Source: an uncultured Dehalococcoidales bacterium
Lineage (GTDB): Bacteria; Chloroflexota; Dehalococcoidia; Dehalococcoidales; UBA2162
Assembly (NCBI GenBank): GCA_964489895.1
Contig: CAZBAN010000003.1
Coordinates: 1-61,036 of the forward strand
DNA: 61,036 bases
Reading direction: 5' to 3'
The notes under the pieces are model-generated. The model saw nothing but the letters and a program-made list of their open reading frames with translations, did no database searches and was not told the origin of the DNA. A program made the translations under genes and the position numbers. This document shows, piece by piece, positions 3,664 through 55,368 of the stretch. Positions within the stretch are counted from its first letter, which is position 1. Each line of letters starts with the position of its first letter.

Positions 3664-3722
3664 CTGCCAGAACATGGGTATCGGAGGAGTAGGTGAACTG
3701 TCCGGACCATTAAGGAGGAAAG

Positions 3723-5287: not shown

Positions 5288-5304
5288 TAGAGTTTCACTG
5301 TAGA

Positions 5305-28098: not shown

Positions 28099-28566
28099 AT
28101 GGGAGAGTCAAAATTTGAACAGTACATTGTAAGAGACCTGTGGCATAAGTCATATCCTGAAGACTTCCATGCCGAGGTGACAAAACCGGTTCTGGGTATG
28201 AGGATTGATAAGATGCCAGGTTCCACCTATTTGCCCTTCGCGTTGTCCTGGGTGCCGATCACAGAAGCCTTTTTAATGGCGCCGGAACCTCATGTACACG
28301 ACTGGGATGAGTTTCTCATGTTCATCGGCGGAGATACTACCAACCTGTTAGACCTGGGGGGTGAAGTCGAATTTTCTTTGGGTGATGATCCAGACAACAT
28401 GGAAAAGTTTGTCTTCACAACACCCACGGTCGTTCATCTTACAAAAGGATTATGGCATTGCCCGCTCAATTTCAAGAGAGTAGATGATCCTGCCAAGCCT
28501 GTACTTTTCACGAACCTGATGTTTACAACTGATTACACGATGAAAAGAGCAAAAGACGTAAAATAA
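28099..28566 (+). CDS. Metal-binding cupin-fold protein (paralog of 44361-44855)
   Basis: Cupin motif 1 HVHDWDEFLMFIGG (HxHx3Ex6G) and motif 2 GLWHCPLN (Gx2Hx3N). RBS AAGGAAGG upstream. Confidence 0.6.
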   Translation: MGESKFEQYIVRDLWHKSYPEDFHAEVTKPVLGMRIDKMPGSTYLPFALSWVPITEAFLMAPEPHVHDWDEFLMFIGGDTTNLLDLGGEVEFSLGDDPDNMEKFVFTTPTVVHLTKGLWHCPLNFKRVDDPAKPVLFTNLMFTTDYTMKRAKDVK

Positions 28567-28865: not shown

Positions 28866-30614
28866 ATGGTAACAAAAGACAGAATATACAAATGTTTAAA
28901 CCCCATCGGAATCCAGGACCCGGTTGACTTATATCCTCTGGCGCCCCGCCTTGACCGGCTTGATGGAAAAACTATCATGTTCAACATGATGGTCAACGTT
29001 GAACAGGAATTTCTCACACCTTTAGAGAAAATGCTGAGGAGTAATTATCCCGAAGTCAACTGGATCTTCAGGGAGTCAGGTCCACCGATACCCGATGAGG
29101 AGCTAAGTAATACCGATGCCCTGATACAGGGAGTGGCATTCTGACATGGTGCTATTAAAGGGCAGTTGCCCCATGCAGCGCAATTCGAAAAAGTGGGAAA
29201 ACCGGCTGTAGTTATCGTCTTCGAAGACCAGGATGAATGCCTCAAGCAGGGAGCCCTGCTCCTCGGTATTCCCCATGTGCGAAGAGCATACTGCTCACGT
29301 ACAGGGAATGGAGTTGAAGATGCCGCCCGTATTATCAAGCCGTTGATGGATGCCCTGACCTTGCCTCTGACTGCGAAAGAAAAAGAAGGCGGCAGATGGG
29401 GAGTATCTGATAATAGGATAATTTTCGAGGGAACCCTCGACGAAGCTGAAGAATTCTATGAGCGTGCAGAAAAAGTCCCCGTTCTTGGAAATGCCTATAT
29501 ATCTCTCTATACGGATGGGATGGCGATAAGGATCCCCACCGAGGAGCGGGTACAGGCGATGCTGAAAGGCACCAGCCATAAGCCGGATGAAGTGATAACT
29601 CTTCAATCCGGTCATAAACAAAGAGAAATGGGGGTCGGAGGTAAGAAGGGTACTCCGGTTCGTTTTGAGCCTCTGAAACGTACAGCTACCGTTGAAAAGG
29701 TTGCCATCAACGCCGTGATGGCAGGATGCAGACCGGAGTATATGCCTGTACTTCTGGCGATTGCTGAAGCAGGAGGCGGTGGGGGGGACGGGCGTGGTAG
29801 TCTGGGATTTTGCGTTAGTGGCCCTATCGCTAAAGAGATAGGAATGAATTTTGATGTGGGGATGCTCGGACCAGGAAATCAGGCCAACAGGAGTATCGGT
29901 CGAGCTGCTGAGCTCATGTGGTGTAATCTGGGAGGAAATATCCCGAAAGTAACCAGCTGCGGAATCATGGGTAACCCGCTTTTTAACTGCTTCCCGGAGA
30001 ATATCGATGCCCTGCCGCCGGGCTGGAAAGGGGTGAATGAAGAGTACGATTTTAAGAAGGATGAAAGCGTTATTTATGTACTTGGTATGAGGGGAGGGCC
30101 TCCCGGTTCATTAACATTCCACAGCACCGAGTTTAGTCCTGGCAGATACAGGACGCTTCAGAAAAGCGGCAGCGGCGGTATGGCCAAACGCCTCGGTAAA
30201 GAAGGAATTCCCGGTCCTCATAACTGGCTGGAATACCAGGTACCCTCTTTATGGGCGGGTAAAGAAGGAGGCTATAATTTCATAATACTTCCGGAGATGG
30301 CACAGCATCTGTACGAAGCCGGTTTTAAGTCCAAGGATGAAGTCTACCAGTGGCTCTATGAGGCCAGTTTCATGCCATTCAGCGAGTACAGGAAACACGC
30401 CTCGCCCGATTTCCGGACAGGCGGCTGGAGGGGAGTAGAAAAAACTTCAGGTAAACCCTGGAAAGAGCTGCCAGATGACTATATGGTACCGGCTGTAGGC
30501 GATCCTTATGAGAACTGCATAATCGTTGCCGGCGGCGGCGAAGAGACGTCTCACTGGGTCAATGGCCGGACGCCCAGCGCAGACCCTGCATATGGAATAG
30601 ATGTCTGGCGTTAA
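28866..30614 (+). CDS. Candidate selenoprotein, type A copy 1 (582 aa; in-frame UGA at 29142-29144 is residue 93)
   Basis: ORFs 28800-29144 and 29166-30614 are in the same frame and separated only by TGA. HGAI.GQL just after the TGA is conserved with the paralog at 53620-55368. There is no SD or ATG for an independent downstream start. RBS AGGAGGG precedes ATG 28866. Confidence 0.7.
29145..29175 (+). promoter_or_regulatory. Candidate bacterial SECIS hairpin
   Basis: CATG/CATG outer pairs. Apical stem GGGC (29160-29163) with GCCC (29168-29171), and an AGUU loop about 23 nt downstream of the UGA. Confidence 0.45.
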
Positions 30615-33314: not shown

Positions 33315-33517
33315 ACTATCCTGCTCCAGTAATTCTATACATAATTGAGATTTCCTATTTCAATACGGAATGATGCGTTCTGACTCTCATCGCTCAGTGT
33401 ATCTATGGTGGAGTCTGGATGTCAATAACGTTCGGAGAAATCCGGTGCCATATTCTAAGGATGAAATGTTAGATTGATTCATCATAGAATGAAGTACTAA
33501 TTATCGGAGGTGGATTA

Positions 33518-34267: not shown

Positions 34268-34316
34268 AAGATGTTATAATATTCCCTTCTTTTCCTTTCT
34301 TGAAAGGAGGACTCTG

Positions 34317-39264: not shown

Positions 39265-39289
39265 AGCTTTCTACCTCCGCAAACGGCAG

Positions 39290-39643: not shown

Positions 39644-40677
39644 GATGCCATCACCAGATAATCCTTTATTTCGTCCACGGTAATATTGTCGAACACTGCT
39701 TTCAGGATGAGCCGCAGGTTCCGCAGCTCCGTCTCCTTCACGATGAAGTACCAGACTGCCATCAGGGGTGACATTACCCGCGGCGATAGTGTCTCCCGGC
39801 TCATCTTGAATTTGTGTTTCTCGATTATTTCATCAACCACGCTAATGTTTTTGCCTTTATCGTAGCTGCTTACGACCTCTTCGGCTATCCGGGAGTACCG
39901 GTCACTTTCCAGCCTGTCGGGTATCTCATTAAGCTTGAGTGACATCATCTCCCGTATCGCCTCCACGGAAATCCTGTACCCGCCGCTAATAGTACCGGCG
40001 GTATCTGCAGCCATACCACCGATAACCGCCCTGAATATAAGCTGAAGGTTGGTCATATCAATCATGGTGCCCAGAGCCCTGGCAAGCATAGAACCGTCCA
40101 TCACCTGTTCTGCTACTCGCACCAGAGTCCTGTAGTACTCATTATCCAGCTTGCTATCAACTGGCAATCTTGCCCCATCACCTTCGTCAGTTCCGTATTC
40201 CTCCACAATTGCGGCGTATCCATGCAGACCGCACTTGACCAGCAGGTCAGCGATACCATCCGTATCATCGGCATCGGAGAGTTCTTCGAGCAGCCCGTTT
40301 TTACTGATTACTCCCACCGGCACCATACTGGCTTTCCTGCCGGATGAGATACCCAGTAAAGCTGCCTTTATATTTAACACATCGTACTTGTTGATATACA
40401 CACCGAGTAGCTTTAAAATCTCCGGGGTGACCGAGGCGAACCTTTCCAGACGACTGAAGCAATCATCCAGATAGCGCCATAAATGGTTGTCCACGTCGTT
40501 AAAGGTCTTTATGGATGCACCTTCGAGGTATGTACCGATGTCGGTCTCTCTGATAGCATCCATAATGTCCTGGACACTGGTGAGCCTGGTCATACTATTG
40601 ATATGACCTGAACCGATAATCCTGGCTTCCTCACCCTTCAGGTAAGCCGATATGAATGCGTATCCGTCGTCTGACAA
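39640..40677 (-). CDS. atpC: A/V-type ATPase subunit C (V0 d-like)
   Basis: 345 aa helical protein. NLRLILKA motif. Operon position. Confidence 0.8.
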   Translation of the reverse strand: MSDDGYAFISAYLKGEEARIIGSGHINSMTRLTSVQDIMDAIRETDIGTYLEGASIKTFNDVDNHLWRYLDDCFSRLERFASVTPEILKLLGVYINKYDVLNIKAALLGISSGRKASMVPVGVISKNGLLEELSDADDTDGIADLLVKCGLHGYAAIVEEYGTDEGDGARLPVDSKLDNEYYRTLVRVAEQVMDGSMLARALGTMIDMTNLQLIFRAVIGGMAADTAGTISGGYRISVEAIREMMSLKLNEIPDRLESDRYSRIAEEVVSSYDKGKNISVVDEIIEKHKFKMSRETLSPRVMSPLMAVWYFIVKETELRNLRLILKAVFDNITVDEIKDYLVMAS

Positions 40678-40686
40678 GACTATCTC

Positions 40687-41268
40687 CTACCTAGATTTAA
40701 AAAGCTCCTTGTTGATATCAGGCATAATCTGAGGGAGCAGTTGCTCCAGCCTGGCGTCATAGCTATTGTCTATTCTGTTCCTGCCTTCGATATCCTCGGC
40801 AATGACTCCGCCCAGACAATCGTGTTCCCTGACTTCCTGAATTTTCCCTGCCAGTTCCCTGTCTTCTTTAACCAGTTTCTTTGCTTCAGCCGTATCCTTT
40901 GGCGAAACATAAAGCACCGCTTTAGCAACACCAAGCGCCTCGACTGACTCTTTAATCAGGCCAAGGAGGGCACTTTTTCCGGCAGAGGAGCCGGACAGTT
41001 TCTCTTTTACTCTGCTGACGATGTCATCGAGTATCTGCTGTTTGGCGGCTGAAAGTTCCTGCCGTGCTTTTATAGAAGCCTGGGCATGAATGCGGGCTGC
41101 TTCACCCTCGGCTTCATCCATCAGCCAGCCTTTTTCAACTTCAAACCTGGCTTCCTGCTGTTTGACTGCCTCGTCCAGCCTCTCCAGTGCTTTTTCCTCG
41201 GCAGCTTTCACGATTTCTTGAGCCTCAGTCTTAACCTTATCCAGAATTGCTTCACCGATTTTGTCCAT
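40687..41268 (-). CDS. atpE: A/V-type ATPase subunit E
   Basis: 193 aa. A long N-terminal charged helix followed by a globular C-terminus. Operon position. Confidence 0.8.
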   Translation of the reverse strand: MDKIGEAILDKVKTEAQEIVKAAEEKALERLDEAVKQQEARFEVEKGWLMDEAEGEAARIHAQASIKARQELSAAKQQILDDIVSRVKEKLSGSSAGKSALLGLIKESVEALGVAKAVLYVSPKDTAEAKKLVKEDRELAGKIQEVREHDCLGGVIAEDIEGRNRIDNSYDARLEQLLPQIMPDINKELFKSR

Positions 41269-41280
41269 AGCATTCAGTCC

Positions 41281-41757
41281 TTACATGAGTCCCAGCATTG
41301 TCAGTGACATTATGGCGAACACCAGACCGAGTACGCCGAGTAGTTCTACAAACACGGCAAGCATGATGGCATTGGTCAATATTGCGCCCTTCGTCTTTGG
41401 CAGGAGGGATATACCGGAGGCGCATACTTTGCCCTGGTATATCGCCGAGAAGCACTCGGCAGCACCGGCAATCAGCCCTGTACCGAGTACCATGGCGCCA
41501 CCGCCTCCTTCCGCCGATATATTAGGCACCACTGCGGTAATAATCAGTATCAACACTATCAGCCCGTAGAATGTCTGGGTCATCGGCAGAGACGCCAGAA
41601 TGATGACATTTCTGAACTGTCCCGATTCTTCTGATAGAGTTGCCGCGCCTGCCGAACCGGCAATACCTATACCTATCGAAGAGCCTATAAGACCTCCAAT
41701 CAGAGCCAGGGCTCCACCAATAGCAGCCAGAGCTGCGGGGTCAAACAACATTTTCAA
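41281..41757 (-). CDS. atpK: A/V-type ATPase proteolipid subunit K (4-TM duplicated c subunit) with the Na+-site residue set
   Basis: 158 aa. SLPMTQTFYG, FSAIYQGKV and AVFVELLG align with Enterococcus hirae NtpK LLPGTQGLYG, FSGIAQGKV and AMVETYA. Confidence 0.88.
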   Translation of the reverse strand: MKMLFDPAALAAIGGALALIGGLIGSSIGIGIAGSAGAATLSEESGQFRNVIILASLPMTQTFYGLIVLILIITAVVPNISAEGGGGAMVLGTGLIAGAAECFSAIYQGKVCASGISLLPKTKGAILTNAIMLAVFVELLGVLGLVFAIMSLTMLGLM

Positions 41758-41777
41758 CCTCCTTCTTCGAGACCTTG

Positions 41778-43772
41778 CTATCTTATCGTTAGTGGTATGA
41801 CCGCCCGCTTCTTTAGCCTGAACGGGCTGTACTCATTACCTCCGCCTTCGTAGAACTTGAAAAGAAACTCCACAAAACACAACCTGAGGGAGTGCATAAA
41901 ACCGGTAATGGCAGTCAGTACCATATTTACCGTGTGTCCGAATATGATAATTACCACTCCCAGAATTCCGCCGATTATAGCGCCGGCTACACCGGGTATC
42001 ATCCCACTGAACAGCTCTGCCATCAGGTTAAAGGTGGATGCCAGGTAGAACGTAGCCAGACCCACACCGGCAAGCCGGGCGTAGGACATAACGTCACCCA
42101 GAAGCCCGGTGATGTCAAACAGCCACAGTATCGCCCCCAGGCCACCGCTCTGCATTACACTTGAAACGATAATTACCAGGACACCTCCCGCCATGACATA
42201 CGACAGTATGGAGTAAAGCTGCGGGGTGAATCCGGGTATATTGACATTAAGCAGAGAATTAAGTATGGACGGTATTCCGAACTGGACGGCAAAAAGTCCT
42301 ACCTTACCGAGTATCACTCCTCTGTTCTTATCTTTAATGCCCTTGATGAGAGCCATAATATGACCGATATTCACGTGGATGAAACCGATGCCCAGAGCCA
42401 GGACGATAAACGAAACGGGGTCCTGGAGTAACTCCTTGACTCCCTGGCTGAGAGCCAGGTCTTCAAATCCGAACAACGTATAGATATTGCCCAGGTACTG
42501 TCCGGTAAGCAGACCACCGATAAGGGCTACTCCGCTGCATATATAGAGCAACTTCTGAAACAGCTTGAAGTTCTCCGAGTCAGGGTCATCGACAAACTTA
42601 GCCAGCAGAAACCTGCCAAGCAGCATGATACCCAGGGCGTAAACCACGTCGCATACCATAATACCGAAGAAAAGAGCGAAGGAATAACTCAGTATTGGAG
42701 TGGGGTCCCACTCTCTGTACCTGGGAGTACCGAACAGGTTAACAATCACGTGAAACGGTCTGAACCCGGCAGGGTTATTCATTTTAGTGGGAGGTTCTTC
42801 ATCCGGTCCTGCCTCTCTGGTATCGATAAATATATCGTCTATGGTATCTTTAAGCTCCGATATGGTGGACTCGACACTGCTTTCAGGCATCCAGCCCTGA
42901 ATAAGAATTACGTATCTGGCTTCACACGCCTTTTCCAGGACTGCCAGCCGCTCGTTCTCCGATAGCAGTACCTCCCTGAGCAGGACAAGCCTGTTTATGT
43001 TTTCACTGGTGGCTTCAATAAGTCTGTCCTGAAGTCCGGAGAGTTCCTGCTGAAGACCGGATAATCTATCGCTGAGCTGTACGATATATTCCTGAAGCGA
43101 GTAGTCCTCGTCGGGTATCTGGAGAATCTTTCCCTCTACTCCCGTCACCAGAGATTCAATATCTTCAAGGTCCTTTACCTTGCCAATGCCATAAACAACG
43201 TTCTCGTCCTCTGCTGTAGCGACGATAGTCTCCAGAGGTCGGTCTTTTAGACTGTCTTTAACGTTCCTGAACGACTCACCGCGAAAAACGAAAACACGGG
43301 AGAAAAGATAATCGCCGGTAAATTTAAGGTCACGCAATTTCAGACCTGTCTGCCCTGTTTGCCGGGCAAGCGGTTCGAGGTACTTCTTCAACCCGCTCAA
43401 CTCTTCAATTTTTTCCGCAGGTCTGACCGTTCGCTGGTACATGTTATGGAGCCTCGTATAGAGTGACTCAACTTCGCCGTTCAGTTCATGTAAAGGCCGG
43501 GTGTAGATTACTTCAACATTCTCGGCTGGAATTAACGCTTCTTTATCGGGCAGATAGGATAGAATGGTATTAACGTTGTCCAGCAGGTGAGTGACTTCGT
43601 GGTGCTGGTCTTCAATAGCCGCCCTGTCAACCGGGCTCAGCTCTTCACTGGTATCGATATGCAGCACTCCAGCCTTATGCAGGGCTTTGAGAGTATTTTC
43701 CGAATCTTCTTTCATGGTCAATACTTTGACCTTGACCATGGTTTCGGGGGTATTAACCACAACAGGTATCAT
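41778..43772 (-). CDS. atpI: A/V-type ATPase subunit I (a-like stator/proton-channel subunit)
   Basis: 664 aa. A soluble N-terminal half and a polytopic C-terminal half containing the conserved Arg context (SYARLAGVGLA). Confidence 0.9.
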   Translation of the reverse strand: MIPVVVNTPETMVKVKVLTMKEDSENTLKALHKAGVLHIDTSEELSPVDRAAIEDQHHEVTHLLDNVNTILSYLPDKEALIPAENVEVIYTRPLHELNGEVESLYTRLHNMYQRTVRPAEKIEELSGLKKYLEPLARQTGQTGLKLRDLKFTGDYLFSRVFVFRGESFRNVKDSLKDRPLETIVATAEDENVVYGIGKVKDLEDIESLVTGVEGKILQIPDEDYSLQEYIVQLSDRLSGLQQELSGLQDRLIEATSENINRLVLLREVLLSENERLAVLEKACEARYVILIQGWMPESSVESTISELKDTIDDIFIDTREAGPDEEPPTKMNNPAGFRPFHVIVNLFGTPRYREWDPTPILSYSFALFFGIMVCDVVYALGIMLLGRFLLAKFVDDPDSENFKLFQKLLYICSGVALIGGLLTGQYLGNIYTLFGFEDLALSQGVKELLQDPVSFIVLALGIGFIHVNIGHIMALIKGIKDKNRGVILGKVGLFAVQFGIPSILNSLLNVNIPGFTPQLYSILSYVMAGGVLVIIVSSVMQSGGLGAILWLFDITGLLGDVMSYARLAGVGLATFYLASTFNLMAELFSGMIPGVAGAIIGGILGVVIIIFGHTVNMVLTAITGFMHSLRLCFVEFLFKFYEGGGNEYSPFRLKKRAVIPLTIR

Positions 43773-44083
43773 CCGGACTTTGCTCCAGAGATAGTATTTA
43801 CAATATTCTCGACTATTCCGTCCAACTTTTTGCCGGCTGTTGTCTTCAGTTCCCGAGCCTGTTTTTTAGCATCAGATACCCGGGAATCGGCTTCTTCTTT
43901 TGCTATAGCTATGATTTTCTCGCAGTCGGCTTTTACTTTATCGAGAGACAACTCGGAAGAGACGATTTGCTGGCTTTCCTCTTTAGCATTCTGGAGGATT
44001 TCATTTGCCTTTTGCCTGGCGGCTTCCAGTATACTTTCGGCTCTGGCTTCGATATCTTCTACACTACCGGTAATTTCATCCAT
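43769..44083 (-). CDS. A/V-type ATPase small peripheral-stalk subunit (H/G-like)
   Basis: About 104 aa charged helical protein. I prefer ATG 44083 because AAGAGGTG lies 8 nt upstream. ATGA overlap with subunit I. Confidence 0.65.
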   Translation of the reverse strand: MDEITGSVEDIEARAESILEAARQKANEILQNAKEESQQIVSSELSLDKVKADCEKIIAIAKEEADSRVSDAKKQARELKTTAGKKLDGIVENIVNTISGAKSG

Positions 44084-44360
44084 ATAAACGACACCTCTTG
44101 TTTGTTTAGTGCCATCAGTCAAGGTTTAGCGTATAAACATAATCGGTGCTGACTGATCAGGATTGACCTCCAATAATTTCGGAAATGATTGTCCAGACCT
44201 GACAACCGGATTAATGATAAACGACACAAACCGATAATTATTATAGCTGAAGTTCCTTCAATATGAAAGCCCTGATTGATGGGTGGAAATGTAAAGCTGG
44301 TATTAACCCGGTAATCGTTATATATTATAATAATAGTCTGTATAAGGAGGTAATTATAAA

Positions 44361-44855
44361 ATGGAGCATAAAAAATACTGGAGAAATGTGATTCAGGGGC
44401 CGTTTTTTAAGGCACCGGAACCCGGGATGACCGGCACGTCGATATTCGCTCATCACAATGAGTACGGGAATGGTACTACCCTGGGTTACCATTGCATTAA
44501 CACGAATTATGAAGTACCGTTCTCTCACTCCCATGATTTTCATGAATTACTGTGCTTTATCGGCGGGAACCCGGAAGATATAAACGATTTGGGAGCGGAA
44601 ATCAGCATCTGCCTGGGTGATGAACAGGAGGAACATATTATTACCAGTGCTACGGTTGTATCTATCCCGCCGGGCTTAAAGCATTGTCCCCTTAAAGTGA
44701 ATAAGATTTCCAAACCCTTTGTATTTCTGGAGGTATCAACGACTACAGGGTATGCCAATAACATGGGAGAGACGGCAGAGGTCCTATTAAAGCCGCCAGA
44801 CATGCCCGAAAGCAAGCCGGAAAAAACAAAAGAACAACCCGAACCTGAGAGTTAG
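44361..44855 (+). CDS. Metal-binding cupin-fold protein (paralog of 28099-28566)
   Basis: HSHDFHELLCFIGG (HxHx3Ex6G) and GLKHCPLK motifs. RBS AAGGAGG upstream. Confidence 0.55.
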   Translation: MEHKKYWRNVIQGPFFKAPEPGMTGTSIFAHHNEYGNGTTLGYHCINTNYEVPFSHSHDFHELLCFIGGNPEDINDLGAEISICLGDEQEEHIITSATVVSIPPGLKHCPLKVNKISKPFVFLEVSTTTGYANNMGETAEVLLKPPDMPESKPEKTKEQPEPES

Positions 44856-45010: not shown

Positions 45011-45949
45011 TTACCAGTCCGGCGGACCTACCTTTTGCTGTTTATCATAAATCGGGGTATATATGGTGCTGAAATTCTTCATAACAGCCCACCTTTCTTC
45101 ATTAAAAGGCTCGTCGGGTATTGCCCGGATAAGAGCGTCGTGGCGACCGATATAGCCATCCCGGAACTCGGCATGGGTGTGGATAAAGAGGTCGTTACGC
45201 TTGATACCCCGCATCACTCGTTCGCCGGTCTCCAGCGGGTCCATGAAAACTGATTCCATATCTAACGACGGGCGTTGCCGACCTTCCTGTCCGGGAGGTG
45301 GCTGAGGCGGCCAGGTCTCTCCCTCGTTCCTCAGGTGTTCGGGACGGTTTTCGAAAGTAGACTGCCCCAGGTTACCCCTCGTCGGTCCGGGGTACAGTAT
45401 GGAAACTCCTATATTTTTATCCTCAAGCTCGGAGGCAAGACACTCCATAAAGCCAGTTACGGCATACTTGGATGTGCAATAGATAGCGAAGTTGGCTGTA
45501 GCCATAAGGCCGCATGTAGAGGACGTGGAAACGATATGCCCGCCCTCACCGTGCTTAAGGATGCGGGGCAGGATGGTCAGCACGCCGTTGATAACACCCC
45601 CGATGTTGACACCCATGGAGTAGTCCCAATCTTTGAATGTTGTATTCTCCGTAGGGACACCGCCTGTACCTACACCGGCGTTATTGACCAGGACATGTAT
45701 CTTGCCGAAGACGGCTTCCGCTTCATCGGCAGCCTTAACGTAAGCCTCCCGGTCGGTCACGTTCAGGTTGATGGGATGGACTTCACCACCGTTTTCCCTG
45801 AACCATGCCATAGCCTCATCCAGAGCGTGCTGACGCGAATCGATGATGACAACCTTCATTCCGTTTTTCACGAATACCTTGGATATGCCCAGACCGATGC
45901 CACTGGCACCGCCGGTGACAAAGGCTGTTTTTCCTTCAACATTCTCCAT
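45011..45949 (-). CDS. Short-chain dehydrogenase/reductase, SDR-1
   Basis: TGGASGIGLG cofactor loop, NNAG, and catalytic S...YxxxK (YCTSK). I prefer ATG 45949 because GGAGG lies upstream. Extended C-terminal helical tail shared with SDR-2 and SDR-3. Confidence 0.88.
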   Translation of the reverse strand: MENVEGKTAFVTGGASGIGLGISKVFVKNGMKVVIIDSRQHALDEAMAWFRENGGEVHPINLNVTDREAYVKAADEAEAVFGKIHVLVNNAGVGTGGVPTENTTFKDWDYSMGVNIGGVINGVLTILPRILKHGEGGHIVSTSSTCGLMATANFAIYCTSKYAVTGFMECLASELEDKNIGVSILYPGPTRGNLGQSTFENRPEHLRNEGETWPPQPPPGQEGRQRPSLDMESVFMDPLETGERVMRGIKRNDLFIHTHAEFRDGYIGRHDALIRAIPDEPFNEERWAVMKNFSTIYTPIYDKQQKVGPPDW

Positions 45950-46004
45950 TTGAATACCTCCATAATTACTTGAACTATGTCTCAGGTTATGCTGATTATT
46001 ATTT

Positions 46005-47702
46005 TTACAGCCGGATACCACAGGTGCCTTCGGCACAGGCTACGGGTTCAGGCATGCGGAGCGGTCTGGCATCCTTCTTAATTCCGGCTTTGGGAATCCA
46101 GGGGTCTATAACCACGGTCTGGAAATGAGAGAAATCGGTGGTGACCCACATCGGATTCATTTCACCGCCGACGACAATGAAGTTGAGCCTCTCTGGATCT
46201 TTAAACTGGAACTCCGTGTTCTTAACAAGCCACTCACTGAGTTTCATCGGGTCATTATAGCCTTCATCATTTTTAAGACTCTTGGCTACCAGCGGGTCGG
46301 TGAGGAACGTAAATGCTCCGCCGAACGGACCACCCAGACTCTTTATGACATCGAGCATCCGCTGAGAAGGTCCTATTCCCTGGGTGAGGACATTCCAGCC
46401 GCGGAAAAGACTTACCGTGCTTTCTTCCTTTTTATAACCTTTACGGACGTGGAAAGGCTTCCAGGGACTTTGTTCTTCGTTCTCTGCGCAGCACATGTTG
46501 TTGTAGTTTATTGTGGTCCCGGTGCTGGCTGTGAATGTAGCCCCGGGACGCATGTCACCGAAGTTTATACTCATCAGCGTCCATGCCCGACCGATAACCG
46601 AATTGGCGTAGTTTACCGGGCTCAGGGCACCGAGCCCTGAGTTCATGCCGATTTCATTCCTTACGGGACCGTTTACCACCATCATGCTGGCGAAGGAGGT
46701 GGTGGAACTGGGCAGGGAAGGTCGCCCCGATTCTCCCAGGGCTAAAATAACCGGGAAATGCTCCGGCCTGCACCCTGCCATGACGGCGATGACGGCACAT
46801 TTCTCCACCGTATATTTGAGTCTTTCCTCATGGGTGGTTACGGACATCATGCCGACGTGTTCATCCGGGGCATGGTCTGTTCCGGTAAGCATCTCCGCCA
46901 CGCGTTCCTCGGTCGGCAGGACTATCGGGAGACCATCAGTCCAGCCGTTTTCCATGAAAAGGCGATGCAGGTTTTCTTCCGTATCCGGTTCCAGCAGGCG
47001 CTCACGTTCCGGTCTTATTTGCGCCTTAAAGGTTTTTTCATTTTCGGATAAAGGCCGGGTGAGAGCGTTATCAATCTCTTCCACGAGCGGCACGCCGGTA
47101 ACCGGGTCGTTGCCTTGAATATAGCCCTTAAGGGTCTCACGGGGCACCCATCCGACCGGGTAAGGAGGGTATGTGAAGCGGAGTGCCATTCCGTGACTCC
47201 GGCAGTCGCGTTCAACATAATCGGCAAACCGGGCGGTGACGATAGGAGCTGTCGGCATGCCGTAATCGTTTTCCATCGTGCGTGAGAATTCGGCGATACT
47301 CGCCGAACAGCCGTCTCAGCCGCCGACGCCGAAGACAACGGCGTCACCGTTTTTCTTTATCTCTTCCCAGAGTTCGGGTTCGTCGGTGAACATGCTGGAA
47401 GCCTTGTTTTTCAGGACGGTCTTTACTCCGGGGCGGTTTTTTGAGAACCAGTTCTGGAGTTCCTCCAGGAATTCTCTGGCGCCGGCAAATCCTGTGCCAA
47501 CCAGGTAAAGGGTCTTGCCTTCCAGGGTGTCGAGTCTCTCCGCCATCTTCAGCGAGCTCAGATTTTCAGCAGTGTCTCTCGGCTGATACGTGGGGTCGTG
47601 GATAGCGAACATTGGTGAGTCCGCATTGAGTCGCCGTCCGAAGATGCCGCTTGGCTGACCGACCGGGTCAAGTACTGCCATTTTAGTATCTTTTATACCC
47701 AT
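46005..47702 (-). CDS. Candidate selenoprotein, type B copy 1 (565 aa; in-frame UGA at 47316-47318, motif GVGG-U-DGC)
   Basis: ORFs 47316-47702 and 46005-47276 share one frame. The 13 codons between the TGA and the first ATG (DGCSASIAEFSRT) are conserved with the paralog at 50854-52530. About 70 percent identity to that paralog by eye. Confidence 0.7.
47289..47307 (-). promoter_or_regulatory. Candidate bacterial SECIS hairpin
   Basis: On the coding strand, UUCGGCGA-GUA-UCGCCGAA begins about 9 nt after the UGA. Confidence 0.45.
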
Positions 47703-47739
47703 GTACTCCTTCCTATCTTTGTTCGGTTCTTACCTGAAC

Positions 47740-49392
47740 TTAATACTTGGCATATACAGGTGCCAGGTTTTTATATTTCGCCACTAACTTATCCCAGGCT
47801 TTGGGAAGCTCGATTTTCTTTGTCACGTACTCCTGCCACTGTATCCAGGCTCCTGAAGCGATATACGCACCACCCGGTCCACCGGCAACGAGGATTGTCA
47901 TGTGGTCGGTACTTGACCCGGGTGGCGGCATCGGCGGAAGCTCTCGAGAATCATCTGAACTTTGCAGTCGGAATGGTTCCATAGGTGGAGCGTGTTCGGC
48001 TATATATTCCTTTGTCTTCTGCTTGGTAAAACCTTCATCGGACAGGAATTTGGCTGTGCCCGGGGGAATAACGATTATGCACATTCCGTACGCGCGTATA
48101 TTCATGGCAATTGGGTCCAGGATGCCCTCAGCACCCACTCCCATGGGAATTGTCCATCTAAACATATTGGGGAACAGGACCGAAAGAGTGCTGTCCTCTT
48201 TTTTAAAACCTTGTTCCAAGTGGAAGGGTTCCCAGGGGCTTTCCTCCTCCCACTCGCCGATTACCATGGTGTACTTCCCCGGGTTGCCGAACGAGCCGGC
48301 GTCCTCGATTCCTTTTCGTATGCCACCGATGTTCTTGATTATCAGACCCATAGCCCGTCCAATGGCGGCGTTGGCAATGTCGCCCGGACTGAAGATTCCT
48401 ATACCGCAGTTAACCAGAATATCGTTGCGCACCGGGCCGTTTATTATCCAGAAGGGGACCCATGAGCCCTGGCTGTCCTGGTAATTATCCCACCTGGTTG
48501 CCCTTTCGGGCAGAGCCTGTACTCCGGCAATGATTACCGGCAGGTGAGTCGGTAAAGCGCCAGCCATGACGGCGTTAACGGCAATCTTCTCAACGGTAGC
48601 CTTGCCCAGACGCGGACCCATCCTGGTAACCACGTGGTCAGGCGGCAGGTCGGTCCCGGTCAGCATTTCTGCCACTGCTGCCTCGGTCGGCGGTATTACC
48701 GGCAGACCGTCACCCCATCCCCTGCGGTAAAAGAACTGGTTGACTTCATTTAAATCTCCGCGGAAGAGGATTCTCGACGGTTTTTCCGGCTCTTTCTGCT
48801 TCGGTGACTTCTCTTCGTCGGTTAAGGGCCTGGTCAGGGCATCGATGATATTATCCAGTAACGGAGCGACTCCGGCTTCGACTCTCTCCGGGCTGTCACG
48901 TTCATCAACCCATTCTTCGGAGTGAATGGAATCCCAGACGACTCTTACACCGGGCATCCCTCTGCCTGACGCCGCTGAACCTTCCTCTACCAGGTATGTC
49001 TGGTTCGTCACCGCTACCGATGGTTTGCCCATTTCCTCGGCAGCTATCGTGTTGTACACAAGGTACTTGGCACAGGTCGATCAGTTGCCGACAAGGAATA
49101 TGCCGGCATCAATCCCCTTTGCCCACTCAACGAATTCTGCCTTTTTATCGGTATCGATTACAGTGACGTTCTGGTCGGTGGAATCGAAAAGGCTGGTTTC
49201 GACGCCCGGATATCTTTCCTTCAGTTTCTCTCCGATGGTCACCGCCATCTGTTTGGATGCCTGTTTGAAGTTCTGGAAGATGCCTATTTTCTTGCCTTCA
49301 AGACTCGTTAATCGTGGTGAAATGCCTTTTAGCGGCACCGGTTCAGCCTCAGCCCAGGGGCTGAGAACCTCGTACTGGTTATTGTTACTCAT
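47740..49392 (-). CDS. Candidate selenoprotein, type C (550 aa; in-frame UGA at 49081-49083, motif LVGN-U-STC)
   Basis: ORFs 49081-49392 and 47740-49059 share one frame. Domain architecture matches types A and B (PRL..LEGK N-domain; GWGDGLPVIPPTE and VEKIAVNAVMAG in the C-domain). Confidence 0.65.
49054..49073 (-). promoter_or_regulatory. Weak candidate SECIS hairpin
   Basis: On the coding strand, GUGCCAAG-UAC-CUUG(U)GUAC (one bulge) starts 8 nt after the UGA. Confidence 0.3.
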
Positions 49393-49434
49393 CGTTTTGT
49401 TCTCCTTACCTGACCTGCAATCTTTTTCTTTTTT

Positions 49435-50403
49435 CTATTCGGCTCCCTGGCGGTTTTTAACCCAGGTTAAGTCTGTCCTGGCTTTGCCAAAACCTGACTC
49501 CGAGTCCCGGTACGGACTCATATCTCTGTTCTTCGCCATTTCTTCCATTCTCTTTTTTTGCTGTTCTTCAAGTCTCTTCATGCCTTCGGCAGTGACATAA
49601 TTCATTAGAGTATCGCAGTGCTCTTTCATCGTCTGCTCGGGGTCGTCGGTGAAGGGCAGGACAAACAACACCTCGTCTTCGATACCCTTCTTCAGCTTCA
49701 AAGCCAGCTCGACGGGGTCCATTCCCTGGGCATGAATAGAACGCAGGACATTAATTGTCTCTTCATTGACGTTGTATCCCGTGTTCTTGAGGTGCTCGGG
49801 ACGGGTGTAAACCGCTTCGCCGATATTTGAGTTGATGTTGGTGGGGCACAGGCAGGTGACGCCGATATTGTACGGTTTGAGTGCCGTGTAGTAGCACTCC
49901 ATGAGCATGTCTACTCCGGCTTTGGCGACTGAATAGGGAGTACAGCCGGGTGATGCCATAAAACCTCCCCATGAAGAGACCGTGCAGATATGACCGGGTC
50001 TGCCGGACTGTATCATCCGCGGCACGAATGTCACCATACCGTTGATGACTCCGCCCAGGTCGACTCCTAAAACCCAGTCGTAGTCTTCGAATGTCGATGC
50101 TTCAGCCGGACCGAAGGTATTTACGCCTGCGGTATTGAAGAGAAGCTGGGGAGGACCGCCGTATACCTTTTCCACCTCGTCGGCAGCCTCCATATATGCC
50201 TTGCGGTCCGTTAAATCCAGTTGTATGGCATGGACTTCCGCTTTTTTGTCCTTGAAATAAGCCATTGCTTCGTCAAGATGGTCTTTGCGGATATCCACGA
50301 TGACAACCTTACAGCCTGCTTCCGAGAATACTTTAGCCTGGCCAAGTCCGGCGCCGGAAGCTCCGCCGGTGATAAACGCAACTTTTCCTGCGAAATCCTT
50401 CAT
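49435..50403 (-). CDS. Short-chain dehydrogenase/reductase, SDR-2
   Basis: TGGASGAGLG, NTAG, S...YSVAK. I prefer ATG 50403 because GGAAGGAG lies upstream. Confidence 0.88.
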   Translation of the reverse strand: MKDFAGKVAFITGGASGAGLGQAKVFSEAGCKVVIVDIRKDHLDEAMAYFKDKKAEVHAIQLDLTDRKAYMEAADEVEKVYGGPPQLLFNTAGVNTFGPAEASTFEDYDWVLGVDLGGVINGMVTFVPRMIQSGRPGHICTVSSWGGFMASPGCTPYSVAKAGVDMLMECYYTALKPYNIGVTCLCPTNINSNIGEAVYTRPEHLKNTGYNVNEETINVLRSIHAQGMDPVELALKLKKGIEDEVLFVLPFTDDPEQTMKEHCDTLMNYVTAEGMKRLEEQQKKRMEEMAKNRDMSPYRDSESGFGKARTDLTWVKNRQGAE

Positions 50404-50595
50404 TATTACTTTCTCCTTCCCCTTTTTATTTAGAATTAGCGTAATATAAACTGTACGAAATTTCAACTCCCGTTTATTCTACCTGGAGTAAAGATGGATT
50501 CGGGAAATTCTCTATAAAACAGATTATTTAGTATTTTGTTATTGGTCTCGAAGAGTTTTTATATATCGATTGTTATAAAAGGGGATTTTATATTA

Positions 50596-50706
50596 CCTCA
50601 CCCCTTACCCTTCAGGGTGAACCTTTCAGGATGAACCCCTCTCACACAAGAGAAAAAGCGTAATGCAAACCAAGGAACTGTGTGAGAGGGGGACAAAGGG
50701 GGTGAG
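50596..50706. repeat. Nested inverted repeat in the divergent intergenic region
   Basis: Inner 13-bp perfect arms CCCCTCTCACACA (50636-50648) and TGTGTGAGAGGGG (50679-50691). Outer arms CTCACCCC (50597-50604) and GGGGTGAG (50699-50706). Confidence 0.6.
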
Positions 50707-50853
50707 TAGTTCTTTCATCCAAAACCAAATAGACCCTGATATTTTGGAAATCAGCATTGTGTGAGTGTTATAATAATACCCAAGCCTGATAAAGAAACAC
50801 CGATCTATCGGTACTTGTTTATAATGGCTATATTCTACACAGGAGAGCTGAAC

Positions 50854-52530
50854 ATGAAAGATGAAAAACTTACGGTACTTGACCCCAGAGGACAGCCCAG
50901 CGGCATATTCGGTCGGCGTGGTGAGCCTGGCTCGCATATGATGGCTATTTTCAACCCCGCAACCCAGCCCACGATGACAATCGACGAGCTAGTTAAGCTG
51001 CGTATGGCGCCCCGCCTGGATAGCCTGGACGATAAAACAATCTATCTGGTGGATACCGGATTCGCCGGCAGCCATGACTTCTTTGAAGAAGTCCAGGACT
51101 GGTTCGGCAGGAACATGCCGTCGGTAAAGACAGTGCTGCATACCAAAAAGGGCAATATGTTCGCCGACGAACCCGAATTATGGGTAGAGCTCAAGGAGAA
51201 AGCGGACGGCGTTGTCTTCGGTGTCGGCGGCTGAGACGGCTGTTCGGCGAGTATCGCCGATTTTGCCCGGACAATGGAAGGCGATTACGGTGTGCCCACC
51301 GCCCCAATCGTCACCTCCAGGTTTGCGGACTACGTGCTGAAGGACGGTCATTATCACGGGATGAATTTACGGTGGACTTTCCCTCCCTACCCGGTAGGGT
51401 GGGTACCCCGTGAGACCCTCCACGATTATGTCCAGGGTAACGACCCTATCACCGGTGTTCCCCTAATGCAGGAGATTGTTAATGCCTTAACGGAGCCGCT
51501 GACGGATGCGGAGAAAAACCCGGTAATTTCCAAGAAGCCTAAAAGACCGCGCTTGCTGGAAGCGGATACCGAGTCGAACCTCCAGCGGTTCTTTCTTGAA
51601 AACGCCTGGACCGACGGCTTACCGATAGTCCTGCCCACGGAAGAAAGGGTTGCCGAGATGCTCACCGGCACCGACCACGACCCTCAGGAAGTAGTCGGCA
51701 TGATGTCGGTTGCACCTTACGAAGAAAAGAATGAATATACAGTCGAAAAGGTAGCCGTAAATGCGGTAATGGCCGGTGCCCGACCTGAGCACCTGCCGGT
51801 AATCCTGGCAATCGCTTCCGCCCGGCATCCTTCCATACTCAGCTCCACCGGTTCTTACGGGAGTATGGTGGTGGTGAACGGACCGGTACGCAACATAATC
51901 GGTATGAACTGCGGCGTCGGTGCTATGGGACCTTTCAATTATGCCAACTCGGTCATCGGCAGGGCATGGACATTGATGAGCATCAACTTCGGCGATGCCC
52001 GTCTGGGTGATAATTTTGTGGCTACCATCGGTAATGGCAATAGTTTTGCCAACCAGTGCTGTGGCGAGAACGAGGAGAAAAGCATCTGGGAGCCCTTCCA
52101 CGTCCGTAACGGGTTCAAGCCCGGGGAGAGCGCCGTGAGCGTGTTCCGTGGCTGGAATGTCATGACGCTGGGAATCGGTGCGGCTGACGGTCTGCTTGAA
52201 AGAATAAAGAGTTTTCATGGCATGGCTCACACTTTCGTGCTCGACCCGCTGGTGGCGAAATCTCTGAAAAATGATGGCTATGACAACCCCCGCAAGTTGA
52301 GTGAATGGCTTGTCAAGCAGGCGGATTCACCTTTCCTCAGACCCGAAGACATCAATTTCGTTGTTGTCGGTGGAGAGACAAACCCCATATTTCAGACTAC
52401 TGATTACGTCTATTACAAGACAACATCAGTAGATAAGTGGATACCAAAGGGCGGGATAAAGCTTGATGAGCAGCCACTACGGATGCCTGTCGGACTGCCC
52501 AGTGCCGACGGCTCATGCGGTATTGAGTAA
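50854..52530 (+). CDS. Candidate selenoprotein, type B copy 2 (558 aa; in-frame UGA at 51232-51234, motif GVGG-U-DGC)
   Basis: ORFs 50761-51234 and 51274-52530 share one frame. DGCSASIADFART between the TGA and the first ATG is conserved with the copy at 46005-47702. RBS AGGAGAG precedes ATG 50854. Confidence 0.7.
51244..51260 (+). promoter_or_regulatory. Candidate bacterial SECIS hairpin
   Basis: TCGGCGA-GTA-TCGCCGA begins 9 nt after the UGA. GGC/GCC pairs can extend the stem across an internal loop. Confidence 0.45.
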
Positions 52531-52569
52531 GGTTCAAACAAAATAATAAAAAGAAAGGAAATACAGATA

Positions 52570-53514
52570 ATGGAAAATGTAGAAGGAAAGGTAGCTTTTG
52601 TAACGGGCGGTGCCAGTGGTATCGGGCTAGGTATCGCCAAGGTGTTTGTTAAGAACGGGATGAAGGTCGTTATCATCGATATGCGACAGGATGCTCTGGA
52701 CGAGGCTATGGCATATTTCAAGGAAAACGGCACCGAGAAGATGGTCCACCCGATAAACCTCGATGTTACCGACCGTGAGGCTTATGCGGCTGCTGCCGAC
52801 GAAGCGGAGAGGGTATTCGGTAAAATACACGTGCTGGTGAACAACGCCGGTGTTGGCTCCGGCGGTTCTGTAGTGACCTCCACATATAAAGACTGGGATT
52901 ACAGCATGGGCGTGAATGTCGGAGGCGTTATTAACGGCATCGTCACCATACTGCCCCGTATTCAGAAACACGGTGAAGGCGGACATGTGGTATCGACCTC
53001 TTCGACTGTCGGACTTTTCGCCATGATCGGAAGCGGAATATATACCACCACGAAATTCGCCGTGACCGGTTTGATGGAAAGTCTGGTTTCGGAACTCGAA
53101 GGTACCGGCATCGGAGCCTCGGTGCTGTATCCCGGAGGGACCACGACCAACCTCGGGTTATCCAGCACGGTCAATCGTCCGGAGCATCTAAAGAACGAAG
53201 GTGAACCCGAATTTCCCCCGCCTTCTCAGGGACGGGAAGGAGCCAGACGGATGCCCATGATGGACATGAGTACTTTTATGGACCCGGTAGAAATGGGTGA
53301 GCGTGTTTTACGGGCTATCAGGCGTAATGATATTTTCATCATCACTCACCCGGAGTTCAGGGACGGTATCAAGTGTCGCCAGGATGCTGTTCTCCGGGCA
53401 ATCCCGGATGAGCCGCCTAACGTGAAGCGTGCCGCAGTACTGAGAGGATTCGGTACCCTCGTATATAATCCCATATATGAGAGACAGACGACTCCCGGTC
53501 CGCCTGATTGGTAG
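52570..53514 (+). CDS. Short-chain dehydrogenase/reductase, SDR-3
   Basis: TGGASGIGLG, NNAG, S...YTTTK. Close paralog of SDR-1 (same MENVEGK N-terminus and GPPDW C-terminus). Confidence 0.88.
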   Translation: MENVEGKVAFVTGGASGIGLGIAKVFVKNGMKVVIIDMRQDALDEAMAYFKENGTEKMVHPINLDVTDREAYAAAADEAERVFGKIHVLVNNAGVGSGGSVVTSTYKDWDYSMGVNVGGVINGIVTILPRIQKHGEGGHVVSTSSTVGLFAMIGSGIYTTTKFAVTGLMESLVSELEGTGIGASVLYPGGTTTNLGLSSTVNRPEHLKNEGEPEFPPPSQGREGARRMPMMDMSTFMDPVEMGERVLRAIRRNDIFIITHPEFRDGIKCRQDAVLRAIPDEPPNVKRAAVLRGFGTLVYNPIYERQTTPGPPDW

Positions 53515-53619
53515 GACCGTTCTTCTTGTATTTCTTTCCCGGTGTGGCATATAATCACCGTAACTACAGGTAGCAAAATATCAGTCCTGAGTAGAACCAG
53601 GAAAACGAGAGGAGAAGAA

Positions 53620-55368
53620 ATGGCGGAAAAATACAAGTGTCTCAACCCCGTAGGAATCCAGAAGCCGGTGGATTTACATCCTCTGGCGCCGCGCCTGGAT
53701 ACAATCGATGGTAAGACAATCTACGTCTGTATCAATGCCGGAGGCGACCAGGATATCACGATACCCTTACTGAAGCGGTTGCCGGCTGACTACCCCAACG
53801 TTAACTGGCAGATTAAGAGGCAGTTCGGTTTCAGCGCTGAGTTAACGGATGAGGAGAAGAAAGAAGCCGATGCGATGATAGCCGGGGTAATCTGGTGACA
53901 TGGAGCTATTTGGGGACAGTTGTTCCAGGTAGCAGATGTTGAACAGGCAGGCATTCCGACGGTATCTCTTATTTATGCAGACCAGGATGAATGCTTCAGG
54001 CAGGCAGCCGTGTTAAGCGGCTCGCCCTGTTTAAGACGGATACACGTTTCCCGTACGCTTCAGGGACCCGAAGACGTTGAAGGGTTCCTGGGACCAATGT
54101 TTGACGCCTTGACACGACCTCTGACGAAAGAGGAGAGTGAGGGCGGTCGTCTGGAGCTGCCGGATGACAGAATATTGTTTGAAGGCACTCTTGAGGAAGC
54201 TGAGGAGTTCTACCAGCAGATAAAGACTTACCCCGCGCTGCGCAATAACGCCCCTATCTCACTCTACACGGACGGTCTCCCGATTGTCGTTCCCACCGAG
54301 GAACGTGTGGAAAAGATGCTGAAGGGCACCAGCCACAAACCTGATGAACTGGTTGCTCTCCAGTCTGACCGGGCCTCGTTTATGAGGGGCCCGGGGGGTA
54401 AGAAGGGCGACCCGGTAAGGTTTCAGCCCGTGCTGCGAAGAGCTACGGTGGAACAGGTAGCGGTCAATGCCGTAATGGCAGGATGCAAGCCGGAATATAT
54501 GCCTGTAGTACTGGCTATTGCCGAATCGGGTGGCGGTGGAGGTCCCGATGGTCGCGGCAGTATTGGCTATGTCGTCAGTGGTCCTATCGCCAAGGAAATA
54601 GGGATGAACTTTGATGTGGGATTACTGGGACCCGGTAACCCGGCTAACAGGAGCATTGCCCGCGCCGCTGAGTTGATGTGGCGTAACTTCGGCGATAATA
54701 TCCCGGCTGTAACCAACTGCGGTGTCATGGGGTGTCCGCTTTTTAACTGCATTCCCGAGGACCTGGACGCGCTGCCGCCGGGCTGGAAAGGCCTGAACGA
54801 GGAGTATGACTTCAGGAAGGACGAAAGTATTGTCTATACAATGAACCTGGGGAGGGGAGGCACGACCAACATACACCGTACCGAATTTTCCCCGGGCGGG
54901 TATCGGGCATTCCAGAAAAGCGGTCACGGCGGCATTGCCAGACGTCTCGGTGTCAAAGGTGTGCCCGGACCGAAGAACTTCCTTGGATACATGGTTCCCG
55001 GCATCTGGGCTAACAGGGAAGGAGGCATTACGTTCCTCTTGCTCCCCCAGATGGCTCAACACCTGTACGAGTGCGGTTTTAAGTCCAAAGATGAAGTATA
55101 CGAGTGGATTTATCAAGCAAGTTTTGTGACCATGAAGGAATACCGGACCCACTCCTGGCCCGATGTCCAGACAAACTCCTGGCTGGGGATAGAACCGAAG
55201 TCAGGCAAGCCGTATAAAGAGCTGGCGGATGATTATAAGGTACCGATGGTGAGAGACCCGTATGAGAACTGCATAATCGTTACCGGCGGTGGTGAAGAAT
55301 ATCCCCAGTGGATTGGCGCTCGCAGACCTGGCTCAAGTCCCGCTTATAATATAGACGTATGGCGGTAA
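53620..55368 (+). CDS. Candidate selenoprotein, type A copy 2 (582 aa; in-frame UGA at 53896-53898 is residue 93)
   Basis: ORFs 53542-53898 and 53920-55368 share one frame. The UGA falls at the same residue number as in the copy at 28866-30614. HGAIWGQL follows the UGA. Confidence 0.7.
53913..53926 (+). promoter_or_regulatory. Candidate bacterial SECIS apical hairpin
   Basis: GGGAC-AGUU-GUUCC, with the loop at the same distance from the UGA as in copy 1. One base pair differs from copy 1 in a compensatory way. Confidence 0.45.

Follow-up and report, generated by a model that had tools for sequence, protein, structure and literature searches.

The window analysed here, a stretch of DNA taken at its whole length of 61,036 nt, contains five large paralogous genes that are each interrupted by one in-frame TGA codon. 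Four of them lie, together with three genes for short-chain dehydrogenases/reductases (SDRs), in two divergent operons that fill the interval under study (45011–55368). The evidence set out below indicates that the TGA is almost certainly translated as selenocysteine (Sec), places the predicted products in the UGSC family (PF24696) and leads us to a tentative proposal for their reaction.

The minus-strand operon is transcribed in the order SDR-1, C, B1, SDR-2 and the plus-strand operon in the order B2, SDR-3, A2, where A, B and C denote types of the large genes. The fifth paralogue, A1, sits 15 kb upstream, outside this interval (Table 1). The original prediction, made from the sequence alone, had named the right genes for the minus strand but had exchanged B1 and C; in ascending order the genes are SDR-2, B1, C and SDR-1. 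All three SDRs that it had recognized match PF00106. SDR-1 and SDR-2 probably start at the ATG codons at 50403 and 45949, respectively, the starts of the longer open reading frames (ORFs) being disfavoured.

Table 1. Positions of the genes, hairpins and flanking features in the window. SECIS, selenocysteine insertion sequence.
Feature	Position	Strand	Details
Cupin-like small protein upstream of A1	28099..28566	+	Paralogue of 44361-44855, 40% identity
Type A1 long-form UGSC selenoprotein gene (predicted)	28866..30614	+	Sec codon 29142-29144; GVAF-U-HGA; PF24696 25.3 bits
SECIS-like hairpin of A1	29149..29181	+	Apical GGGC-AGUU-GCCC at 29160-29171
Second cupin-like small protein	44361..44855	+	Adjoins minus-strand operon; paralogue of 28099-28566
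SDR-2, LigO/LigL-like C-alpha-dehydrogenase homologue	45011..45949	-	PF00106; PDB 4YA6
Type B1 long-form UGSC selenoprotein gene (predicted)	46005..47702	-	Sec codon 47318-47316; GVGG-U-DGC; PF24696 69.5 bits
SECIS-like hairpin of B1	47288..47308	-	9-bp stem, GUA loop
Type C long-form UGSC selenoprotein gene (predicted)	47740..49392	-	Sec codon 49083-49081; LVGN-U-STC; PF24696 61 bits
SECIS-like hairpin of C	49053..49074	-	
SDR-1, LigD-like C-alpha-dehydrogenase homologue	49435..50403	-	First gene of minus-strand operon; PF00106; PDB 4Y98
Divergent intergenic region between the two operons	50404..50853	.	Deduced from gene coordinates
Type B2 long-form UGSC selenoprotein gene (predicted)	50854..52530	+	Sec codon 51232-51234; GVGG-U-DGC; PF24696 63.6 bits
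SECIS-like hairpin of B2	51244..51260	+	UCGGCGA-GUA-UCGCCGA
SDR-3, LigO/LigL-like C-alpha-dehydrogenase homologue	52570..53514	+	PF00106; PDB 4YA6, 4YAE
Type A2 long-form UGSC-like selenoprotein gene (predicted)	53620..55368	+	Sec codon 53896-53898; GVIW-U-HGA; PF24696 22 bits
SECIS-like hairpin of A2	53905..53933	+	11-bp stem, loop ACAGUUG, z = -2.0

The in-frame TGA codons

Each of the five large genes is a single reading frame that one TGA divides into a short and a long ORF. This holds for the four genes of the interval and for the fifth site, in A1, and the motifs around the sites are those that had been reported, to which GVAF-U-HGA of A1 is added. The predicted full-length products have 550–583 residues, including the UGA-encoded one. 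Strong Shine–Dalgarno sequences are found only at the upstream ATGs (AGGAGG before that of A1 at 28866, GGAAGGAG for B1, and AAGGAG, AGGAG and GAGGAG for the other three); the ‘internal’ starts of the downstream halves have none, as the original prediction had it. The Pfam UGSC match is continuous across the TGA in all five proteins. Since TGA is the ordinary stop of nine of the 41 window genes, the recoding is local and the genetic code standard, again in agreement with the earlier view. A six-frame scan of the window revealed no other same-frame pair (segments of at least 100 amino acids, aa) with protein conservation across the joining TGA. One candidate, a TGA-joined pair at 5965–5967, was rejected as two adjacent separate genes.

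The codon aligned with the TGA was compared in 79 loci from species-representative genomes of at least eight phyla. It is TGA in 67, TGC (Cys) in 10 and a Leu codon in two; among metagenomic A-type relatives (51–100% identity) it is TGA in 66 out of 66. Homologues with Cys at the UGA position, whose presence the original prediction had left to be checked, thus occur in nature, and one of them is full length: a 599-aa Desulfobacteraceae protein (P0001) that is 71% identical to B2 over 99% of the length and reads GVAG-C-DGC at the site. B2 has more than 6500 homologues, nearly all of them C-terminal fragments of 75% coverage, which indicates that gene callers cut at the same codon.

The gene for P0001 (locus L001) has HdrA-like, FlpD and ferredoxin-domain genes as neighbours and adjoins a gene for a DUF1573 protein, which is itself from a known selenoprotein family. 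The N-terminus of P0001 is a hydrophobic stretch ending in Cys, similar to a lipoprotein signal. The two Leu-containing homologues come from metagenome-assembled genomes (MAGs) of Acidobacteria and Deltaproteobacteria (L029, L030). In these, CTG or TTA replaces the Sec/Cys codon within the motif GQ-L-DTC and the hairpin is absent; they may be non-catalytic or differently functioning paralogues.

At all five sites the TGA is followed by a hairpin, as had been claimed; it begins 6–15 nt 3' of the codon and carries G-U in the apical loop. Because Rfam has no fitting bacterial SECIS model, the hairpins were analysed directly; Rfam searches at the gathering threshold, and also at E ≤ 10, gave no SECIS family match at the window sites. 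The longest stem is 6.3 bp in TGA forms versus 4.7 bp in non-TGA forms (Mann–Whitney p = 0.001), and the post-codon hairpin that is seen in TGA forms is absent from Cys forms of otherwise similar sequence. The A-type loop CAGUUG is invariant, even at synonymous sites: its Leu codon is TTG in all 66 sequences, against a share of 9% for TTG among the other Leu codons of these genes. Three stem pairs of the A type are changed on both sides (G-C to A-U, or C-G), and the encoded residues change too.

Dehalococcoidia are reported to have up to 49 selenoproteins (PMC13326102). In alpha- and gammaproteobacterial MAGs the Sec-form gene stands first in a complete Sec island whose tRNA-Sec has the anticodon UCA (L077, 5600–13108; L059; L080). 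In L077 and L059 the family gene is followed by selD, a thioredoxin reductase (TrxR)-like gene, selA, selB and tRNA-Sec, and SelB-type or SelD-type neighbours are present at seven loci in all. We are nearly certain that one UGA in each of the five genes is decoded as Sec, helped by the SECIS hairpin downstream of it.

A two-domain UGSC family

By sequence, the five proteins belong to the UGSC (seleno)protein family, known but uncharacterized, and there to its long form. The UGSC-containing protein was predicted as a selenoprotein family from marine metagenomes of the 2000s and was among the most abundant in the Global Ocean Sampling survey. In aquatic metagenomes it has since then ranked near the top of the predicted selenoproteins by abundance, and none of its members has an assigned function. 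A UGSC link had been suggested tentatively for the locus and proved to be correct: the N-termini match Pfam UGSC, and NCBI/UniRef already apply the name ‘UGSC family (seleno)protein’ to 555-aa Cys forms of Neorhizobium, Roseomonas and Ramlibacter. The description of the locus as an uncharacterized selenoenzyme system therefore stands for the function but not for the family. A ‘UGSC/Unknown_1’ fusion was mentioned in 2008; Unknown_1 may be the C-terminal domain described here.

All five proteins match PF24696 at permissive E-values, and A2 alone falls below the gathering threshold of 25 bits. NF041046, an equivalog model for the family, is a stand-alone profile of 147 positions with a cut-off of 125 bits that none of the window proteins reaches (44.4, 41.9, 40.3 and 15.9 bits; no match for A1); P0390, which NCBI names ‘UGSC family (seleno)protein’, scores only 64 bits on it. 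The window proteins share with this family the N-domain match, the place of Sec or Cys (for B1, B2 and C within U/C-x-x-C) and the coexistence of Sec and Cys forms. They differ in having UDGC (B1, B2), USTC (C) or UHGA (A1, A2) instead of UGSC. The A type, which has no second Cys at U+3 and borders the Pfam threshold, is a divergent, apparently Sec-only branch at the edge of the model.

The UGSC part is an α/β domain of ∼ 190 aa, followed by a C-terminal domain (C-domain) of ∼ 350 aa. In the AlphaFold model of the Cys homologue P0001, the N-domain is ordered β-α-β-α-β-[U/C]-α-β-α, so that Sec/Cys is placed at a strand end and a helix start. Foldseek searches with the full-length model (predicted local distance difference test, pLDDT, 74) returned weak matches, E ≥ 4e-3, to generic three-layer α/β proteins (caspases, flavodoxin-like, SIS). 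The C-domain was modelled with a pLDDT of 83 and a predicted TM score (pTM) of 0.86. Its best Foldseek match (barbiturase/cyanuric acid hydrolase, the ‘Toblerone’ fold) has E 0.18 and TM below 0.2 and was treated as no match. There is no Pfam or NCBIfam relative of the C-domain, and PDB sequence searches with C-domain and UGSC-domain profiles gave nothing below E 0.3. The C-domain, which the original prediction could assign to no enzyme family, thus remains without a match in Pfam, NCBIfam, PDB sequences or Foldseek.

The C-domain is nonetheless widespread and strongly patterned. Its profile matches 6011 clusters (50% identity level) at E ≤ 1e-3, of which 1544 reach E ≤ 1e-30. The conserved motifs are W-x-DGLP-x-x-PTE, TVEK-A-x-NAVMAG, NGP, AN-x-IGRA and GENEE-SPW; they include invariant Asp, Glu and Arg, and most members have no Cys of their own in this domain.

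In some organisms the two domains are encoded by separate, adjacent genes, in either order. On plasmid 2 of Halalkalicoccus jeotgali (L163, 5851–7455) a 201-aa UGSC protein (CGSC) is directly followed by a 332-aa C-domain protein; plasmid 3 of Variovorax sp. SRS16 (L164, 3206–7686) carries an apparent operon trxB–TctC–SDR–C-domain–UGSC. These natural two-gene forms break ∼ 70–80 residues downstream of the Sec position, after the complete UGSC domain, and not at Sec.

The position of a second Cys differs between the types in a reciprocal manner. Ala at U+3 is combined with Cys after AVMAG in 50 of 51 A-type sequences, and Cys at U+3 with Ala after AVMAG in 71 of 76 sequences of the B and C types, of which the other five have both Cys. 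The AVMAG motif lies ∼ 170–195 residues past Sec (A-type loci L083–L162 and genome loci L003–L082). This swap points to the need for a second thiol and would place AVMAG close to Sec.

Dehydrogenase partners and proposed reaction

The three SDRs of the window resemble solved Lig Cα-dehydrogenases over their full length and well above other SDRs. SDR-1 matches LigD (PDB 4Y98) with E 1.3e-90 and 52% identity over 291 aa. The best PDB match of both SDR-2 and SDR-3 is LigO (4YA6; for SDR-2 E 5.8e-64 and 45% identity over 269 aa, for SDR-3 E 4.4e-72), and then LigL (4YAE; E 2.3e-56 for SDR-3). The next-best match, 3ioy (E 5e-49 to 9e-54), carries no more specific PDB label than SDR; it comes from a lignin-degrading sphingomonad and so may also be Lig-type. 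All matches outside the Lig enzymes and 3ioy have E 1e-26 to 1e-40. PDB codes were mapped to Lig enzymes according to PMC4858972. NCBIfam has no curated Lig-dehydrogenase model, and the SDRs match only its generic SDR models, below their cut-offs.

Pairs of B-then-SDR and SDR-then-C genes recur, with spacers of 25–50 nt, in about nine other genomes (Dehalococcoidia, one Bacillota and one Acidobacteriaceae). In the Acidobacteriaceae locus (L018, 88–7365) four LigD/LigO-like SDR genes and a gene for a secreted tannase/feruloyl esterase (PF07519, E 5e-112) lie directly upstream of a Sec-form B-type gene. Of 73 loci, 18 have a low-Mr TrxR-like gene next to the family gene, and its ORF sometimes shares nucleotides with the end of that gene, 4 nt in Rhizobium puerariae. 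Tandem paralogues are present in 22 of the 73 loci, with A-type arrays of up to three copies. Solute-binding proteins are also common neighbours. A1 is followed by one of family 5 (30721–32472, PF00496), and such proteins flank A-type genes in six metagenome loci. The remaining neighbours are diverse (amidase, CoA transferase, CoA ligases, and binding proteins of the tripartite ATP-independent periplasmic (TRAP), TctC and peptide types).

We tentatively propose, in the knowledge that it may well prove wrong, that the family members are two-(seleno)thiol enzymes that reductively cleave the α-substituent of SDR-made ketones and so replace the glutathione-dependent LigE/F/G steps. First, the LigD/LigO-like SDR of the same operon would oxidize a secondary (benzylic) alcohol to the ketone. 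The selenolate would then attack the carbon α to the ketone and expel the substituent, which for a lignin β-O-4 unit would be the aryloxide. Next, the partner Cys, at U+3 in types B and C and after AVMAG in type A, would attack selenium, freeing the ketone (enolate) product and leaving an Se–S bond that a TrxR-type system would re-reduce. We infer that the UGSC domain would be a built-in redox/nucleophile module and that the C-domain would bind the substrate. Several paralogues and SDRs could cover different stereoisomers or related substrates.

The model for this scheme is the β-aryl-ether pathway of Sphingobium sp. SYK-6. There, oxidation of the benzylic alcohol by LigD, LigL, LigN and LigO is followed by displacement of the aryloxide at C-β, which the etherases LigE, LigF and LigP bring about with glutathione; LigG then frees the product with a second glutathione (PMC4858972). 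Thiolysis by LigE/F followed by thiol-dependent release by LigG is thus a chemical precedent for the proposed attack α to the new ketone and release by a second thiol (PMC4858972, PMC6369299). Both systems have several dehydrogenase paralogues, which in the window stand beside several paralogues of the (seleno)thiol enzyme, and the window SDRs are 45–52% identical to LigD/LigO. The window proteins, however, have no Pfam glutathione S-transferase (GST) domain and no structural match to a PDB fold, so the relation is one of analogy and not of membership. Their nucleophile would be a protein selenolate instead of glutathione, their oxidized product an intramolecular Se–S bond instead of glutathione disulfide, and their hosts are likely anaerobic Dehalococcoidia-type bacteria. 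A single glutathione-free protein would merge the LigE/F/P etherase and LigG lyase steps.

Several observations weigh against this proposal. The substrate is suggested by gene neighbours alone, and 52% identity to LigD leaves substrate specificity unfixed. SDR adjacency is seen in only about nine of the 79 genome loci. Most relatives (STC type; Proteobacteria, Binatia, Rokubacteria) have TrxR-like, transporter and CoA-ligase neighbours and no LigD-like SDR, and the SDR of Variovorax is not LigD-like; it is thus probable that different members act on different substrates. Two clades are set apart by the Cys swap, which may have arisen only once. Within the 61-kb window there is no selA, selB, selD or tRNA-Sec, and no TrxR-like gene was seen in its annotated parts.

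Glycine/sarcosine/betaine and D-proline reductases (GrdA, GrdB, PrdB) depend for recycling on thioredoxin and its reductase, whose genes are often found in the same gene cluster. They would have in common with the proposed enzymes a UxxC selenoprotein, reductive cleavage α to a carbonyl and a selenoether that gives way to an Se–S bond, a cycle described for glycine reductase (PMC13188914). The same architecture and two-(seleno)thiol chemistry could accordingly serve for another bond next to a carbonyl (C–N, C–S or C–halogen), with the SDRs merely supplying or removing the carbonyl, as in glycine/betaine/proline reductase or in the dehalogenation of α-halo ketones. We rate this as rather unlikely. 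It would suit the UxxC motif and TrxR association, which follow GrdB/PrdB logic, the very diverse neighbourhoods of the family and the Dehalococcoidia-like organisms, but fold and partners differ. We found no Pfam match to PF07355 (GRDB), PF04723 or PF09338 (Gly_reductase/PrdA) with the N-domains at E ≤ 10 or the full proteins at E ≤ 0.01, and among annotated neighbours the window has SDRs and no visible pyruvoyl subunit or proenzyme. The closest relatives of these SDRs are specifically the Lig Cα-dehydrogenases, and a feruloyl esterase/tannase is part of the Acidobacteriaceae cluster. The modular redox pathway with SDRs envisaged in the original prediction is consistent with our results and can be sharpened to LigD/LigO/LigL-like SDRs; homology to glycine/proline reductases has no support from Pfam.

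It is unlikely, in our view, that the proteins are general thiol/selenol oxidoreductases (a peroxidase or disulfide reductase) with TrxR-like recycling as in AhpC/AhpF and incidental SDR adjacency. A CxxC TrxR-like flavoprotein gene beside a CxxC/UxxC domain gene is indeed reminiscent of thioredoxin/low-Mr TrxR and AhpC/AhpF systems, the adjacent flavoprotein also scores on AhpF models, UxxC/CxxC is typical of redox-defence selenoproteins and UGSC is regarded in the literature as a probable redox protein. The UGSC domain, however, is a predicted β-α-β-α sandwich with the motif after the third strand, has no Pfam thioredoxin-family match and is fused to a large extra domain. The strong conservation of that domain, with its Asp/Glu/Arg motifs and mostly without Cys, would not be expected of such an enzyme, nor would tandem arrays of two or three divergent paralogues beside transporters and catabolic enzymes, short-spaced SDR pairs kept across three phyla, or a split-gene operon that unites SDR, C-domain, UGSC and trxB.

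A role in selenium/sulfur handling, for example selenide delivery to SelD, would account for the place of the gene at the front of sel operons in some Proteobacteria (L077, L059) and for its SelB/SelD-type neighbours in seven loci. We consider it very improbable, because Cys forms are encoded in genomes and at loci where the vicinity is free of sel genes, five paralogues with SDRs in one window are unlike a housekeeping selenium carrier, and a selenoprotein gene travelling with sel genes seems the simpler account. That the TGAs are true stops, each locus being two genes or a pseudogene, is scarcely credible: gene callers do split almost every homologue at this codon, and haloarchaea and Variovorax do have separate domain genes, but the natural splits lie past the complete UGSC domain, the TGA interrupts a single domain, aligns with Cys codons and persists in 133 of 145 relatives, a conserved hairpin follows it and the downstream ORFs lack Shine–Dalgarno sequences.

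To our knowledge, every β-aryl-ether-cleaving enzyme known is a GST from aerobic Proteobacteria. Through the reductive cleavage that we propose, the window and its relatives connect the function of UGSC with the question of how lignin ether bonds are lost in anoxic sediments. A bolder version, which we think improbable, is that long-form UGSC selenoproteins are the first glutathione-independent β-etherases and carry out Sec-based cleavage of β-O-4 bonds, the dominant linkage in oligomers derived from lignin, in anoxic sediments and soils after LigD-type oxidation; in a wider sense, UGSC plus C-domain would then define reductive C–X lyases of a new, TrxR-recycled class whose fold has no solved representative. 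All β-etherases known in 2018 were GSTs (PMC6369299), and we found no report of a Sec-dependent β-etherase in the literature. If true, this bolder version would also tell what one of the selenoprotein families most abundant in the environment does. New here are the LigD/LigO likeness of the SDRs, the TrxR-like, SDR and tannase/feruloyl esterase neighbours and the swap of the second Cys. What they offer is a specific functional hypothesis that can be tested, together with evidence for a C-domain without a known fold. Natural Cys forms exist in culturable Neorhizobium, Ramlibacter and Variovorax. Rules for annotating the family, whose genes are nearly always split in two by gene callers, can be drawn from the Sec position and the SECIS pattern.

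Other genes of the window

Two ‘cupins’ had been noted near the Sec genes. Neither small protein has a Pfam, NCBIfam or PDB sequence match, so the label reflects motif resemblance only. Homologues of the one upstream of A1 adjoin A-type genes in five metagenome loci, and a 90% identical copy of the other lies beside B and C homologues in L162. This contig belongs, with L083, L102 and L142, to a set of Joint Genome Institute metagenome contigs (Ga0315537, Ga0315548, Ga0315544 and Ga0315543) that show 98.5–100% identity to parts of the window, as in Ga0315537, Ga0315548 and Ga0315544, or shared synteny. L083 is 100% identical at A2. The C-terminal ORF of type C has a 99% identical counterpart in protein P0121, whereas a look-up of the exact protein for the C-terminal ORF of B2 gave no record.

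Immediately upstream of the selenoprotein cluster, 35026–44122 (minus strand) looks like a V/A-type ATPase operon from its translations (subunit I, 664 aa; A- and B-like subunits, 582 and 477 aa). Beyond the binding protein of A1, genes for an α/β hydrolase, a SnoaL-like protein and a nitroreductase occupy 32508–35006. A transfer-messenger RNA gene (27565–27919, tag peptide GEEPVLVAA), the only RNA gene found in the window, directly follows smpB-like and clpP-like ORFs. The 402-aa protein encoded at 18883–20091 resembles ‘methanogenesis marker 16 metalloprotein’ (TIGR03287, E 5e-37, below cut-off) in what is apparently a bacterial (Dehalococcoidia-like) genome.

The region 352–5967 encodes a pterin-binding methyltransferase-like protein, NiFe hydrogenase small and large subunits, a protein with the C-terminal domain of methylenetetrahydrofolate reductase (PF12225) beside a methylenetetrahydrofolate reductase (PF02219), and a DUF3786 protein. 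The large subunit had been considered as a Sec-type NiFeSe hydrogenase, which would have been independent evidence of Sec use; it ends in DPCIACAIH and is therefore of the Cys type. The gene content of this cluster suggests a methyl-branch/methyl-transfer module, which would suit a user of methoxylated aromatics.

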